DNA of 64,000 nucleotides from Escherichia phage ECML-134, in the sequence record JX128259; one strand, written 5' to 3'. Below, piece by piece: positions 17,583 to 23,493 of this stretch. The notes beneath the pieces are model-generated. The model made no database searches. It was not told the origin of the DNA and saw nothing but the letters and a program-made list of their open reading frames with translations. Made by a program: the position numbers and the translations under genes. Numbering within the stretch: the first letter of the stretch is position 1; each line of letters opens with the position of its first letter.

Positions 17583-17609
17583 GGGGACCTTTCGGTCCCC
17601 ATATTTTTA
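17583..17609. terminator. Hairpin terminator after gene 54 (convergent junction)
   Basis: GGGGACC-TTTC-GGTCCCC followed by a T-rich run. Confidence 0.8.
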
Positions 17610-17897
17610 TTTACGGAATGAAATGAAAGCAGCAACTGAAGCAACTAAACTGTCTTCAATATAAACTTCAATTTTTACCGGAGCTTCTGACTCAAATTTA
17701 CCTGTTACTACACCCTGAAAAATACTTTCAGTCTGTTCTGGCTTTGAAAAATTTTCAGAAGGAAAAATTCCGAACTTTTTATCTGTTCCAAAAATTTTGA
17801 TAAATTCATCATAAACTGCTTCATTAAAAGCATTATCAGCAGGAATAACGCCTTCAACTACAAGTTCTTGACCTAAAAAGCGTAAAGAAGATTTCAT
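17607..17897 (-). CDS. Hypothetical protein (alt-downstream ORF)
   Basis: 96-aa ORF with GAGGAA RBS and its own early promoter. Confidence 0.65.
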   Translation of the reverse strand: MKSSLRFLGQELVVEGVIPADNAFNEAVYDEFIKIFGTDKKFGIFPSENFSKPEQTESIFQGVVTGKFESEAPVKIEVYIEDSLVASVAAFISFRK

Positions 17898-17928
17898 TTT
17901 GTGTTCCTCATGTTATGTCAGTAAGACT

Positions 17929-17958
17929 ACTATAACACAACATAAGGAACTTGTAAAC
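17929..17958 (-). promoter_or_regulatory. Early (sigma70-type) promoter TTTACA-N17-TATAGT
   Basis: -35 and -10 hexamers with 17-nt spacer on the - strand upstream of ORF 17607..17897; -35 overlaps the alt stop. Confidence 0.7.
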
Positions 17959-20021
17959 TACATCTTGAACTTTTTAGACATTCCGTTGATGTTAACCAAA
18001 GAAGCTAAGATTTGAGAAACTTCGTTTTCCTCTTCTTTTGATTCTTCTACAAGGAATTGATTAAATCCAGCCATTGGACGAACTTCACCAGTTTCCATTA
18101 GATGGTCTCCATCATATACTGATTCTTCTAATTGTTCAGAAGGAGGAACGATTGTACCTTCGATTAGATACTTGTTATAAGCAGTTTCTTTCATAAAGTA
18201 CGTACTTACTTTATTAATCTTCAGTAAAATTCCACGCGGTAGAATAACTTCAGCTTCTGATGGAAATCCTGATAAATGACCTGGAACGATAACTTTGATT
18301 CGCTCAGCTCCTTTAATTACCATACCCACGCTAGTTTCAGCATCTTCATTGGCATATGTAGAATGACTACCCATATGCATTAAATCTTCTGCATCAACGG
18401 AACCTTCTCCTTCGCCAGAAAATACTGCGCCGGAATCATCTAGAGCCATATAGTTTTTACCATGCTCACCGAAGATATTTGGTTTAAGTGATGTCGATAC
18501 GAAGTTCTTGAAATAGAACATTTTATTTTCAATGTTATGACGCAAAGTTTTAAAGGTAACTTCTTGTCCACGGTAAAGTGTAGTTCCTGGAGGAAGAACT
18601 GATCCTTTGGCAAAGGCAGAATCTAACGTCTCGATGTGCTTAATAGCTCGTTCCATGTATTCTTCACGGGTAGAATCTGGTTTACCCAAAAGGAACGAGT
18701 TCATTTCAACATATGAATCTGCACAATAATCTTCAATTACATCAGATTCAGCCTGAGTCAGTCCTTTTGGAGTTACTTCGGTGCTTGCGTATTCATATGC
18801 CTGAGCAGCAGATTCATTAATCAATTTATAAATGCCATTCATTACAAATTGAATAATAGCTGTCTTTTCATCTGACGTAGCTTTAGAACCTTTAACTAAA
18901 TCATTGATAATTTTCTTAATAACATCAAAGCTATTAGAAATATTAATGTCAGCAAGATCGCTTAAAATTTTATCAGTTTTATAATCAAAGAATTCTTTAT
19001 TCTTTAAATATTCTTGAGAACCTTGATATGTTATATCGCTCTGCAGCTTGATAGATGGATCGCGTAAACGTGCATGGGCTAATGCAATATGATTTCGGAA
19101 ACTTTCTAGTTCATAATCATTAGATTTAAAACGAGAAGCACTTCTCATACCACCGATAGCTCCTTTGCTGAAGTTTGAACCAATCTGGATAACGCCAGAG
19201 TTCATTGGTCCTTCTGCTTTATATACCGGAACTTTAGATTCAAACTCTTGATATTTCTTGGCAGCGAAGCTATCACCCTGAAGTGAAGCATCAACAGTAG
19301 AATATTGAGCTTGTGCTGCTAATCGACGACTAATTTTAGTTTTCTGAATAACAGCTTGATCAGTGCGCTTATCATTTTCTAAAGCAATAGAAGCAGCAAC
19401 AGCGACAGCTTTAGGAACAGCATTACCTGTTTTAACGTCTACATAAACATCACCAACCTTTGATTCAACTTTTGTGAATAACTCAGTTGAAATAGGAGGT
19501 ACACCTGGAATGTCTTCTAAATTGGCATTTTTACGGTAAACCATAATATATGCATACTTTTTATCGTAATCCCAGAGTTCCTTAAGAAGGACGTATCTGC
19601 CACCTGAACGACTACGGATAAGTCTATCAGCAATAACTTGAATTTGTCGAGCTTGGCCAGCAGTTTTAGACTTAAGAATACGAAGCATACAAGCATCAAT
19701 TTTATATTGACGCATTGTTTGCATTGCAACAGTAAAAACTGAATTGATATAATTAATTGGGCTTGGACCAAGACCTTTTAATTTAGCAATTGAACCTTTA
19801 GCAGTTAATGTAAAAGGAACAATATGCATCATTTTGTCGCCCATTTTTAAATCGCGATTAGTATCACCTCCAGATGTATAGGTACATAAACGAAAGCCTG
19901 GTTGTTCAATTGCATCATCAACATGAACTGAAAAAATTTGTGGTATTTTCTTCTTTGGATTTAAGTTTGTAATCGGAAGAGTAGTATCTTCGTCAAATAA
20001 TTCTGTAATGAGTTCCATCAT
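17958..20021 (-). CDS. alt: Alt ADP-ribosyltransferase (packaged in the virion, modifies host RNA polymerase)
   Basis: 687-aa ORF at the T4 alt position; ART-type motifs (Y-R-G, STS region, EVILP) in the C-terminal half. Confidence 0.88.
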   Translation of the reverse strand: MMELITELFDEDTTLPITNLNPKKKIPQIFSVHVDDAIEQPGFRLCTYTSGGDTNRDLKMGDKMMHIVPFTLTAKGSIAKLKGLGPSPINYINSVFTVAMQTMRQYKIDACMLRILKSKTAGQARQIQVIADRLIRSRSGGRYVLLKELWDYDKKYAYIMVYRKNANLEDIPGVPPISTELFTKVESKVGDVYVDVKTGNAVPKAVAVAASIALENDKRTDQAVIQKTKISRRLAAQAQYSTVDASLQGDSFAAKKYQEFESKVPVYKAEGPMNSGVIQIGSNFSKGAIGGMRSASRFKSNDYELESFRNHIALAHARLRDPSIKLQSDITYQGSQEYLKNKEFFDYKTDKILSDLADINISNSFDVIKKIINDLVKGSKATSDEKTAIIQFVMNGIYKLINESAAQAYEYASTEVTPKGLTQAESDVIEDYCADSYVEMNSFLLGKPDSTREEYMERAIKHIETLDSAFAKGSVLPPGTTLYRGQEVTFKTLRHNIENKMFYFKNFVSTSLKPNIFGEHGKNYMALDDSGAVFSGEGEGSVDAEDLMHMGSHSTYANEDAETSVGMVIKGAERIKVIVPGHLSGFPSEAEVILPRGILLKINKVSTYFMKETAYNKYLIEGTIVPPSEQLEESVYDGDHLMETGEVRPMAGFNQFLVEESKEEENEVSQILASLVNINGMSKKFKM

Positions 20022-20041
20022 ATCCTCTCTAGTGTTTATTC

Positions 20042-20049
20042 TATTTATA
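20042..20049 (-). promoter_or_regulatory. Late promoter TATAAATA (alt)
   Basis: Octamer on the - strand about 20 nt upstream of the alt ATG. Confidence 0.65.
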
Positions 20050-20070
20050 AAATTAAAGGCCCGAAGGCCT

Positions 20071-20259
20071 TTAATAATCTATTGGTAAGAGAGTACGATA
20101 TATTTCAAACTTTGGACCTTTTTCATAGGCATCAAATGTTTCTGTGAATTTATTATAAGCATATGCATCTATAAATTCAATCATGATTTGTGATACAGAA
20201 GTAGAAACATCTCCACCTTCTTTTTGAGCCACGACAATTGTTTCTAAGTAAGCTTTCAT
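20071..20259 (-). CDS. Hypothetical protein
   Basis: 62-aa ORF between gene 30 and alt. Confidence 0.5.
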   Translation of the reverse strand: MKAYLETIVVAQKEGGDVSTSVSQIMIEFIDAYAYNKFTETFDAYEKGPKFEIYRTLLPIDY

Positions 20260-21719
20260 AAACCAGTTACCTCATGAAAATTACCAAATACATCCTCGAA
20301 TGTATTAGCTTTAGTTTTATCTTCACGCAAACGAATCGCAATCGGAAGAAATAATTTAACGTAATCAGTGCGGCCATCAGATTTTAACCAACCGTTGCAT
20401 TCGCACTCTAGAATTTTTCCAATATAATAATTTTGGTTTTCCATAATGCGAGTACGGTCAAGTTCATGCGATTTTACACCGGCTTTATCTTTTAAGCCTG
20501 AACCAGCATTTACTTTAATTTTTCCACACTCTGACTCAAGAATAAATCCACCTGCTTTAGTAGGGTCTTTACGGTGAGGATAAATTCCTACAATTTTTAA
20601 ATCAACATCAATTACTTCTTTAAATTTATAGAGATTTTTTGAACGAGCATTTTCCCATAATCCATCGATATTTTTGAGAATAATACCTTCAAGACCTTGG
20701 TCAATATACTTTTTATAAATTACCTTAGCTTCATCTAGGTTATTTACTATCTGGTTTTCAATTAAAATTACTTTATCATAGCCTGATGTCATTTGTTCTA
20801 GTTTAGAAAAACGTACATCATATTTTAAACGAAATGCTGGAAGACCGTATATTTCTACTAATGGAACATAGTCCCAGACCTGAAACTTCATGCATTGTGC
20901 TTCTTTTTCAGAAATGGTTCCCTTTAAAGATTTATTAGCGATTCCATTAGAAGCAGTACGTGATTCAGCTACTTCGGCGAATTCTTTAGCTTTACTAATT
21001 TCAGGATAAGCATCAAAAAGAAAATCTAGGCCTTCTGGTTCCTTTTCAACTTGCTCATGGTATACCAATTCGCCATCAATTAATACACCTTCTGGATGAA
21101 TCTGGCGGGCTTCAGCAGTCATTTTGATTAACTCTTCCTTAAGAAGATCTAATCCTAGATATTCATTGCCAGCTCGTGATAAAAGACGAACATCATCTAA
21201 TTCATCACCTCTGACTTCGGCAAAGCACCGAGCTCCATCAGCTTTTAACTGGGCAAAGGCTGGAAATTTGATATTCTTATTAATGCCTTTTTCATCATAA
21301 GAACTTGCAAGCATTTGAGGTTGTTCAGGAATTAAACCTGGCCAAACTTTGTTCGCAATAGATACTGAAGCGCCACATTCAAGATCTCGCATCATCACTC
21401 GACGCAAAACTTCAACATCATCTTTTTTACCATCGGTGATGTATCCAGTTAATTCCTCAATCGCCGCATTTCCAGTCAATTTCCGAGTAGCTAACGTGAA
21501 TTCAATGAAGTCAAACATATCGGTAAGAGTCAACATTCCAAAACTCTGGGTAGCAATACCAGGTTTAGGCCATTTCTTGATATAATACTGTAACCCACGA
21601 GAATAAGTCAGACGATATACTCGTTTAAGCAATTCATTATCTTTATTCTTTTCAAGAATTGCTTGCTTCTGCTTAGTTGAACCAATAGATGCTATTTCGT
21701 TCAGAATTTTAAGAATCAT
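20256..21719 (-). CDS. 30: ATP-dependent DNA ligase gp30
   Basis: 487 aa; adenylation motif KADGAR; near-identical to T4 DNA ligase as recalled. Confidence 0.95.
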   Translation of the reverse strand: MILKILNEIASIGSTKQKQAILEKNKDNELLKRVYRLTYSRGLQYYIKKWPKPGIATQSFGMLTLTDMFDFIEFTLATRKLTGNAAIEELTGYITDGKKDDVEVLRRVMMRDLECGASVSIANKVWPGLIPEQPQMLASSYDEKGINKNIKFPAFAQLKADGARCFAEVRGDELDDVRLLSRAGNEYLGLDLLKEELIKMTAEARQIHPEGVLIDGELVYHEQVEKEPEGLDFLFDAYPEISKAKEFAEVAESRTASNGIANKSLKGTISEKEAQCMKFQVWDYVPLVEIYGLPAFRLKYDVRFSKLEQMTSGYDKVILIENQIVNNLDEAKVIYKKYIDQGLEGIILKNIDGLWENARSKNLYKFKEVIDVDLKIVGIYPHRKDPTKAGGFILESECGKIKVNAGSGLKDKAGVKSHELDRTRIMENQNYYIGKILECECNGWLKSDGRTDYVKLFLPIAIRLREDKTKANTFEDVFGNFHEVTGL

Positions 21720-21985
21720 TGTTCATCCTTTAGAGTTTGGTTTACAGCTCTATTATAAATCAATTCATCATTAAGCTCAGTCAAAGACCTGTGGTACGTG
21801 GTTCTAACTTTATTTCCTTGCATCCAGTGCTTGACGTAAATGAAACCTTGCTCTACACATTTTTTAAAAATTCGTTCGTCTTTTTGAGCTCGGAATTCTG
21901 GATTGCATCTAAAAAATTGATTTACGTGACCGTAATCACGTGTAGTATTACCTTCATTTTCATAAATAGTGTGAACGACAAACAT
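21716..21985 (-). CDS. Hypothetical protein (30.1-like)
   Basis: 89-aa ORF, overlapping stop/start arrangement. Confidence 0.6.
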   Translation of the reverse strand: MFVVHTIYENEGNTTRDYGHVNQFFRCNPEFRAQKDERIFKKCVEQGFIYVKHWMQGNKVRTTYHRSLTELNDELIYNRAVNQTLKDEQ

Positions 21986-22839
21986 TAGAATGCTCCTTGG
22001 AAAATATTATCACCACTACCACTAGTAAGTCTATTAAAATACCCTGCATCACCAGGCTTAATATAACTCCATGTATGGAATGGATGCATCTGATGTGAGT
22101 GCGTATAATATGGATGATATGGATTATAAGGATTAAATCCAGGAGTTCTCCAGGTAGTGTTCCAACGAAAAGAATCGTTTTTAATCATCTTTTCAATTAC
22201 ATCTTTTATAGCTTTTTCACTATCAAAACTTTCTTTATTTTCCTTTGGTGGAAAAAGCTTATTCTCTACATCATTCCATGTATAAACTCGCTGAGCGGTT
22301 TTTGGAATACTGTCACGCTCCCCTCGAGCCATCCAATAAACAGGAACATTTAATATTTCACTTGCATGATCGCAGTGGTGAGCGAGATCGTCAATATAAC
22401 AAATTACGTTATATTTCTCTTTTGCCTTTTTGAACAACTCTTCTTTTGAAGAATCATGACCACACATCAATACTTCTGAGAAGGCACCAGGAAAAAGAGC
22501 ATTCAAATTAAATTGACGATTCAGCAGAGCGTCAATAGAATCACCCAATGCTGTAACAGCTACAAAATTATAATCTTCTTTTAATTTGTTAATTACACAC
22601 AGGGCATCTTTATATGGAGACAAGTAACGAATAAAATCTGAACGATTGTATTTTTCAATTAACTTGACGCCAAGTTCTTCATCACAATTAAAGAGTTTAC
22701 CAGGAGAAATAAATTTCTCATCTTGGATCATTTTTAAAATATGTTCTAACGGAAGATTATATTTCTGAGCAAAATAAGGAAGGCCTGATTGCCAGCTTAA
22801 ACATACTCCATCAATATCAGTCAAAATAGTAGGCTTCAT
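21985..22839 (-). CDS. HAD-superfamily hydrolase-like protein (30.2-like) with His/Tyr/Pro-rich C-terminal tail
   Basis: N-terminal ILTDIDGV (DxDG HAD motif I); C-terminal NPYNPYHPYYTHSHQMHPFHTW. Confidence 0.7.
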   Translation of the reverse strand: MKPTILTDIDGVCLSWQSGLPYFAQKYNLPLEHILKMIQDEKFISPGKLFNCDEELGVKLIEKYNRSDFIRYLSPYKDALCVINKLKEDYNFVAVTALGDSIDALLNRQFNLNALFPGAFSEVLMCGHDSSKEELFKKAKEKYNVICYIDDLAHHCDHASEILNVPVYWMARGERDSIPKTAQRVYTWNDVENKLFPPKENKESFDSEKAIKDVIEKMIKNDSFRWNTTWRTPGFNPYNPYHPYYTHSHQMHPFHTWSYIKPGDAGYFNRLTSGSGDNIFQGAF

Positions 22840-23300
22840 AGAGAGTCTCTTAATAGGTTTAACACATCAATAAATTCAGCTTCGGTTAGTATTGTATCAT
22901 CTTTTGTTAGACCACTAGCCATGCTGTGCTTCAAAACTTTTCCTTTTGAGGCTTGTAAGGCATCACGAAACCCCTTGTTTTGAATCGCTGCTTCAAAATA
23001 TGCATTTGTATACAACTCTTTCCACGCTGGGGAGTATCTTGAAAATGGAACTCCCAGCCAGAAGAGGGTCCCACGGTCCTGAGCTCTTGCATAAGACCTT
23101 CCAGCTTGTTGGGCGGCAAGCCCGGATAACCCAAATATACGTCTTTGCTGCTCAACATTTTTCACCTTGCATCCTTGGAGGAATCCTTCGAGACCTCCAA
23201 ATTGGATACCATCCATAACAAAAGGCCATTGGGCGAAATTACTTAATGCGCATGATGGCCATCTAAAATTGCTTCTAATCTCTAACTCAGACATTTTCAA
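22836..23300 (-). CDS. NADAR/YbiA-like domain protein (30.3-like)
   Basis: 154 aa; LSNFAQWPFVMDGIQF...EGFLQGCK resembles the YbiA/NADAR SNFxxWPxxVDG core. Confidence 0.65.
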   Translation of the reverse strand: MKMSELEIRSNFRWPSCALSNFAQWPFVMDGIQFGGLEGFLQGCKVKNVEQQRRIFGLSGLAAQQAGRSYARAQDRGTLFWLGVPFSRYSPAWKELYTNAYFEAAIQNKGFRDALQASKGKVLKHSMASGLTKDDTILTEAEFIDVLNLLRDSL

Positions 23301-23493
23301 TACTTATAATTTCAACATCAGCCCAATGACCATAGCAAGGAAGACGAAATTCAACTGGCCAGTTAGGGTCCTTTTCTAATATAATAGACTTAACTTGTGG
23401 TTCTTCATGTTCATCAGTATATGGATTTTTATCTGTTACTTTATATGTGACCTTAATGTACTGAATTCCAAAAATCTTATTAATTATATTCAT
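23287..23493 (-). CDS. Hypothetical protein
   Basis: 68-aa ORF in operon. Confidence 0.5.
   Translation of the reverse strand: MNIINKIFGIQYIKVTYKVTDKNPYTDEHEEPQVKSIILEKDPNWPVEFRLPCYGHWADVEIISIENV

Follow-up and report, generated by a model that had tools for sequence, protein, structure and literature searches.

Phage proteins of the T4 type were placed in the NADAR superfamily by Iyer et al. 2022 (PMC9503650) and Schuller et al. 2023 (PMC11543638), who describe a clade in which a histidine replaces the glutamate or aspartate of the last strand. A histidine at this position of phage NADARs is reported in PMC11125620, PMC11543638 and PMC12945103. Iyer et al. also remarked on the location of the T4-like NADARs, which are found with early genes in the vicinity of ADP-ribosyltransferases (ARTs). 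Johannesman et al. [quoted passage not shown] When adfN is deleted, T4 and T2 fail to form plaques on DarTG1 hosts (PMC11825919), and T4 AdfN is both necessary and sufficient for T-even resistance (PMC11825919; Toxins 2024, PMC11125620). RB69, which is DarTG1-sensitive, has a frameshifted allele that has lost the last 15 residues, and it is rescued by ectopic adfN; C-terminal truncation lowers the activity of AdfN (PMC11825919).

The purified T4 protein strips ADP-ribose from DarT1-modified DNA, and the E36A mutant is inactive in vitro. K43A impairs rescue, and no AdfN-DarT1 interaction was seen in a two-hybrid assay (PMC11825919). In vitro, T4 gp30.3 hydrolyses guanosine-ADPr and not thymidine-ADPr (Toxins 2024, PMC11125620), and cytidine-ADPr is not removed by the T4 enzyme (Toxins 2026, PMC12945103). 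The anti-DarT role of T4 gp30.3/AdfN is therefore experimentally established (PMC11825919, PMC11125620, PMC12945103), as is the principle that phage 'orphan antitoxins' can enzymatically reverse a DNA modification made by host defence. AdfN(T4) is fully effective in T-even infection only: in uninfected E. coli it gives no rescue from DarT1, and its rescue of non-T-even phages is weak (reported also in PMC11125620); with T5 and Bas25 it performs poorly, for a reason other than DNA hypermodification. We note that the T4 NADAR construct is given as 'gp30.3; residues 1-208' in Methods 4.2 of PMC11125620; T4 gene 30.3 encodes 152 residues.

Here we describe the corresponding gene in a stretch of 64,000 nucleotides from Escherichia phage ECML-134 (JX128259), referred to below as the window. 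The window is a Tequatrovirus (T4-like) genome, and over the 13 kb around the gene its identity is 99.0% with Escherichia phage vB_EcoM_SCS4 and about 97% with many further T-even phages. The gene is a minus-strand open reading frame with its stop at 22836. It carries both of the motifs, LSNFAQWPFVMDGIQF and EGFLQGCK, that were quoted in an earlier note on this DNA, and it is real, with a Pfam match far above chance (PF08010, Phage_30_3, E = 2.3e-70).

The predicted protein is identical to T4 gp30.3 (NP_049816) at 151 of 152 residues, the sole change being I125M (Ile in T4, Met here), two residues away from His123. At the nucleotide level there are 23 differences from T4, of which 22 are synonymous, which indicates strong purifying selection. 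The reading frame of 459 nt is colinear with that of T4, without gaps, and the RB69-type frameshift at nucleotide 411 is absent. The two proteins share their length, E36 and K43, the intact C-terminal helix and a position between 30.4 and 30.2. The phage is nevertheless distinct from T4: the window has a single alt and lacks alt.-1/alt.-2, and the region around the gene is closest to vB_EcoM_SCS4. The gene is thus identified by its sequence as adfN, the ortholog of T4 gene 30.3, and the I125M allele of this phage would be expected to behave like T4 AdfN. Both the NADAR identity and the DarT-countering role are already known, having been published between 2023 and 2025 for an essentially identical protein. 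The suggestion in the earlier note that the protein counters DarT-like toxins had accordingly been demonstrated by experiment, for T4 gp30.3/AdfN, one residue removed from the window protein. The value of adfN here is one of annotation, and it adds nothing new to the orphan-antitoxin story.

The positions of the gene and its surroundings are collected in Table 1. The earlier note had described a 154-residue reading frame, 22836-23300. Its stop is correct, but the TTG start at 23300 was a mechanical choice, and the start is likely to be the ATG at 23294. This is favoured by three lines of evidence: the ATG is annotated as the start in T4 RefSeq and in JK38; in the family alignment the homologues begin at MSELEI, with the same methionine; and the published numbering of the catalytic residues E36 and K43 (PMC11825919) fits the ATG start only.

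Table 1. Features of the adfN region (positions are those of the whole window)
Feature	Position	Strand	Remarks
alt	17958-20021	-	Pfam PF03496, E = 5e-20; T4/JK38 records
alt.1-alt gap	20022-20070	-	49 nt
TATAAATA motif	20049-20042	-	precedes the alt ATG by 21 nt
alt.1	20071-20259	-	T4/JK38 records
30 (DNA ligase)	20256-21719	-	Pfam PF01068; T4/JK38 records
30.1	21716-21985	-	Pfam DUF3045; T4/JK38 records
30.2	21985-22839	-	T4/JK38 records
adfN (T4 gene 30.3 ortholog)	22836-23294	-	152 aa + stop; predicted phage-clade NADAR guanine-ADP-ribose DNA glycohydrolase
adfN stop/30.2 start overlap	22836-22839	-	4 nt, ATGA; read from sequence
C-terminal helix, codons of residues 138-152	22839-22883	-	helix predicted for 138-151; identical to T4, intact
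His123 codon, last strand	22926-22928	-	invariant in the 10-sequence alignment, at least 90% in the 50-sequence alignment; predicted strand 120-123
30.3' frame	22931-23158	-	75 aa, +1 frame inside adfN
Lys43 codon, catalytic/ADP-ribose-contacting	23166-23168	-	at least 90% conserved in the 50-sequence alignment; aligns to YbiA Lys
Glu36 codon, catalytic	23187-23189	-	invariant in the 50-sequence alignment; aligns to YbiA Glu in SEHYFQAQK
SNF motif, codons of S18-N19-F20	23235-23243	-	aligns to YbiA FSNF
30.4 stop/adfN start overlap	23287-23294	-	8 nt, ATGTCTGA; read from sequence
30.4	23287-23493	-	T4/JK38 records
Two extra codons, TTG AAA	23295-23300	-	in mechanical ORF call and earlier note; probably outside the protein
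30.5, 30.6, 30.7	upstream of 30.4	-	run continues
sigma-70-like site	24481-24452	-	11/12 matches; upstream of 30.7

The genes around adfN are tightly packed on the minus strand in the order 30.3, 30.2, 30.1, 30 (DNA ligase), alt.1, alt, and this order matches that of T4. Within such a tightly packed run, the 8-nt overlap ATGTCTGA suggests translational coupling. The sigma-70-like site could conceivably drive the string from 30.7 to the ligase. The product of 30.4 has no Pfam match, and falls in a PHROG family of unknown function.

Direct scans do not by themselves assign the protein to the NADAR superfamily. PF08010 is the sole Pfam match of the window protein (235 bits, the cut-off being 36), with no match to PF08719, the NADAR entry, and no NCBIfam model was matched. 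A single-sequence phmmer search of the PDB returned no NADAR, the best hit being an unrelated chain (E = 0.61). Two family alignments were used, one of 10 sequences (A1) and one of 50 diverse members (A2). Searched against the PDB as a profile, the former places YbiA on top with E = 0.055; with the latter, E. coli YbiA (2b3w) is the sole significant match (E = 8.5e-4). YbiA is also the best structural match. In the profile alignment the family segment LSNFakhpFvlDG...EGfLQslK pairs with FSNFAAWPIKVDG...EHYFQAQK of YbiA. The comparison of A2 with the YbiA of E. coli K-12 (sequence from NC_000913) using hhalign gives a probability of 95.5% and E = 1.4e-8 over 118 columns. PF08719 itself is matched individually by 8 of the 50 family members, the best with E = 1.1e-4. 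The link of the window protein to NADAR is therefore one of profile and fold, and not of direct single-sequence scans. The earlier note had proposed a PF08719 search: the direct Pfam scan fails, giving PF08010 alone, and the family profile against YbiA succeeds. Taken naively as a refutation, the direct scan would have misled, since it is a false negative.

The conserved residues agree with the profiles. As in the rest of the superfamily, a catalytic Glu and Lys lie on the helix that follows SNF...DG, in the pattern E..[FL]Q..K. Among the 50 sequences N19 is invariant and S18 nearly so (at least 90%); F20 is nearly invariant in the 10-sequence alignment only. The position of His123 is occupied by Glu in the YbiA family and by Asp in the DarG1/BC4488 family, and the histidine marks the phage NADAR clade. 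The window protein has both of the features of this clade (gp30.3), namely a PF08010 match above the gathering score and the last-strand His. It is also full length and has the C-terminal helix, as is characteristic of a functional anti-DarTG1 allele of adfN. This confirms, at the level of sequence, that the adfN product belongs to the phage clade of the NADAR superfamily. The earlier note had called it a NADAR/YbiA-like enzyme on the strength of an SNF...WP...DG / E..LQ..K motif, and the profile, the hhalign comparison and the residues all agree with this; the catalytic residues whose presence it had wished to see checked, E36 and K43, are present, conserved and aligned with the E and K of YbiA.

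Identity to the DarG1-type antitoxins (BC4488 family; for example Geobacter lovleyi NADAR, PDB 8bat) is 13%. At the position of His123 these proteins have Asp, and additional elements at their N-terminus build an electropositive channel (PMC12945103). DarG1 is encoded beside DarT1, whereas adfN has no toxin partner, its neighbours being 30.4 and 30.2; and DarG1 rescues uninfected cells from DarT1, which AdfN(T4) does not. Identity to E. coli YbiA (PDB 2b3w; PF08719), an N-glycosidase acting on riboflavin intermediates, is 19%. The YbiA family is defined by its last-strand Glu, where the adfN product has His, and YbiA is a housekeeping-type enzyme whose host operon, shared with dinG and ybiB, is under the control of LexA (PMC11125620). 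[quoted passage not shown] However, they fall in different NADAR branches and represent independent acquisitions; unlike the T4-type protein, they are effective in uninfected cells and on behalf of unrelated phages.

On the basis of these observations, the adfN product is very probably a minimal, single-domain NADAR of the phage clade that would undo the ADP-ribosylation of DNA by DarT1, and so act as an orphan antitoxin. On infection of a DarTG1 host, DarT1 would ADP-ribosylate guanines of the phage DNA at their N2 amino group, and the modified guanines would block phage DNA replication. AdfN would hydrolyse the N-glycosidic bond and free the ADP-ribose, restoring the DNA template. In function it would thus match DarG1, the NADAR antitoxin of the host, but no toxin gene accompanies it. 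Catalysis would depend on two residues of the helix that follows the SNF...DG strand-loop, Glu36 and Lys43, and probably also on His123 in the last strand; we infer that H123 substitutes for the Glu or Asp that contacts the distal ribose. The present analysis contributes to this proposal the orthology with T4 gp30.3, the fold and the profile relationship to NADAR, the conserved residues, the intact helix, the purifying selection and the lack of a linked DarT. The activity of the enzyme, its specificity for guanine and its effect against DarTG1 are known from published experiments with the T4 protein, which is 99% identical.

The gene context has been analysed further, as it bears on what else the protein might do. 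Four genes (30.2, 30.1, 30 and alt.1) separate adfN from alt, and not two, as was implied by placing it 'three genes upstream'. The gap between alt.1 and alt contains a GC-rich hairpin, AAAGGCC-TTCG-GGCCTTT, followed directly by TATAAATA, the T4 late-promoter consensus. Given the positions of the hairpin and the motif, our reading of the latter as a late promoter, and the packaging of Alt into the capsid (a property given in the T4 record), alt probably lies outside the early unit of adfN, insulated by the hairpin and with a late-type promoter of its own. The shared early unit proposed in the earlier note is accordingly doubtful. A terminator scan of the gap did not call the hairpin, which failed the T-run criterion, and TATAAATA is not enriched across the window (11 observed against 8.8 expected). 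The alt region (17607-20021) varies among relatives. Here one alt (687 aa) is followed directly by alt.-3 (DUF5498); T4 carries alt.-1/alt.-2, remnants of a partial duplication of alt; and JK38 and several other phages have two full alt-like ADP-ribosyltransferase genes.

Neighbours within 4 kb were then compared across 80 distant viral loci, each with a member of the family at 36-46% identity. Searches by tblastn with the neighbours from the window found 30.2 in 13 loci, the ligase in 13 and alt in 4, with alt.1, 30.1 and 30.4 to 30.8 each in at most 1. The loci positive for 30.2 and for the ligase coincide to a large extent and are synteny blocks of the T4 type; all of the alt-positive loci are blocks of this type too, with the ligase present. 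In an all-against-all clustering of the 1786 open reading frames of the 80 loci, no family besides NADAR occurs in more than 14 loci. No DarT is linked to adfN, the nearest ART being alt, of the PF03496 exotoxin type and four genes off. Functional linkage of adfN to alt or to 30.2 beyond synteny was considered and rejected, on the tblastn and clustering results for the 80 loci. Since it has no universal neighbour in these loci, adfN behaves, to judge from its surroundings, as a stand-alone orphan, as published.

These results can be set against other explanations of the protein. The closeness to YbiA, the top structural match, raises the possibility that its main substrates are soluble ADP-ribose derivatives (for instance nucleotides of immune signalling, or RNA-repair by-products), or that it is mainly a YbiA-like N-glycosidase of the riboflavin pathway, with de-ADP-ribosylation of DNA as a side activity. 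The poor performance of AdfN outside T-even infection points the same way, in that reversal of DarT1 is perhaps not its sole role. Nevertheless, both genetics and biochemistry tie AdfN to DarT1-modified DNA (PMC11825919), the last-strand Glu that is the hallmark of YbiA is a His here, and no NAD-salvage or RNA-repair genes are conserved beside the homologues in the 80 loci, so that we regard this explanation as unlikely. A different thought, prompted by the presence of alt 2.8 kb downstream on the same strand, and by the location of T4-like NADARs among early genes near ARTs (PMC9503650), is that the protein erases the work of the phage's own Alt, ModA and ModB, reversing or tuning the ADP-ribosylation (or RNAylation) of host proteins. 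Given that alt is cut off by four genes, the hairpin and TATAAATA, that it accompanies the family in so few of the distant loci and then within ligase-bearing synteny, and that the characterised NADARs cleave N-glycosidic bonds at bases and not at arginine (PMC11125620, PMC12945103, PMC11543638), we consider this very improbable. The tuning of the phage's own ADP-ribosylation put forward in the earlier note, with alt linked in 4 of 80 loci and apparently separately promoted, is thus left unsupported.

It might also be asked whether the NADAR fold is a mere scaffold, and AdfN binds DarT1 stoichiometrically, as AdfA and AdfB do, since the E36A and K43A mutants keep a partial ability to rescue RB69 (PMC11825919). 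The two-hybrid test with DarT1 was negative, however, and purified AdfN removes ADP-ribose from DNA in a manner dependent on E36 (PMC11825919); moreover, the catalytic residues are invariant in 50 diverse homologues, apart from the small variation at Lys43 given in Table 1. We therefore find this explanation scarcely credible. The picture of a free-standing eraser is nonetheless incomplete, because AdfN(T4) fails in uninfected cells and is weak for non-T-even phages, and a further T-even factor or context is needed. One candidate for such a partner lies directly downstream and is translationally coupled to adfN: this is 30.2, whose product might act on the ADP-ribose set free or bring AdfN to DNA under replication. 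The ATGA stop/start overlap and the invariant HAD-phosphatase motif pattern (described below) point towards it; the adjacency of the two genes in 13 of the 80 distant loci, always inside the ligase synteny block, points away, and many T-even genes common to RB69 are equally eligible as partners. On balance we think it improbable that 30.2 is the missing factor.

The earlier note had also mentioned a HAD-like hydrolase near adfN, which corresponds to 30.2. The protein has no significant match in Pfam, in NCBIfam, in a phmmer search of the PDB, or in a search of the PDB with an 11-sequence profile, and a single-sequence AlphaFold model, with a pLDDT of 38, is too poor to use. An alignment of homologues of 24-48% identity (A3) shows invariant T7-D8-x-D10-G11, T96, K132 and D150-D151. 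This pattern is that of HAD phosphatase motifs I-IV, so that the description as HAD-like holds at the motif level only. The T-even 30.2 proteins have an extra C-terminal tail of about 70 residues, rich in His, Pro and Tyr (NPYNPYHPYYTHSHQMHPFHTW...), which is missing from the distant homologues. The tail differs from that of T4, and the protein has 284 residues here and 278 in T4.

A further reading frame, 30.3', is open within adfN in the window, and matches PHROG 14037. T4 RefSeq annotates it as 'internal translation in a different reading frame'. Between the window and T4, 15 of its 75 residues differ, against 1 of 152 in the adfN frame, and only 14 of the 80 distant relatives have at least 70 open codons in this frame. 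It therefore looks like an unselected frame, and is unlikely to be a true overlapping gene.

The family is large: a profile of ten close homologues, run against 1.84 billion proteins, identified 1451 clusters (50% identity) at E <= 0.001. A homologue of adfN is encoded in 1509 phage records, and in almost all of the matches listed it is labelled 'hypothetical protein'. Since Pfam files the product under PF08010 and not under NADAR, automated pipelines miss a characterised anti-defence gene. This has practical consequences, as the intact adfN allele predicts that the present phage would plate on E. coli that carry DarTG1, and such a prediction of host range would be useful for phage therapy collections.

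Among the metagenome representatives, the PF08010 domain is found in tandem copies, and fused to a GDSL lipase, to BspA-type leucine-rich repeats, to prolipoprotein diacylglyceryl transferase (Lgt) and to an FtsW/RodA-like membrane region. Fusions of this envelope-associated kind would not be expected of an enzyme that removes ADP-ribose from DNA, and could be gene-calling artefacts or indicate other substrates. Within Tequatrovirus, the genomes of SV76, vB_Eco_NR1, UGJNEcP4 and RPN226 have only truncated gp30.3 fragments (86-109 aa), or products with other Pfam families. The truncated forms may be natural adfN-defective alleles beyond that of RB69, or frameshifts of sequencing or annotation; if they are truly defective, these phages are predicted to be sensitive to DarTG1.
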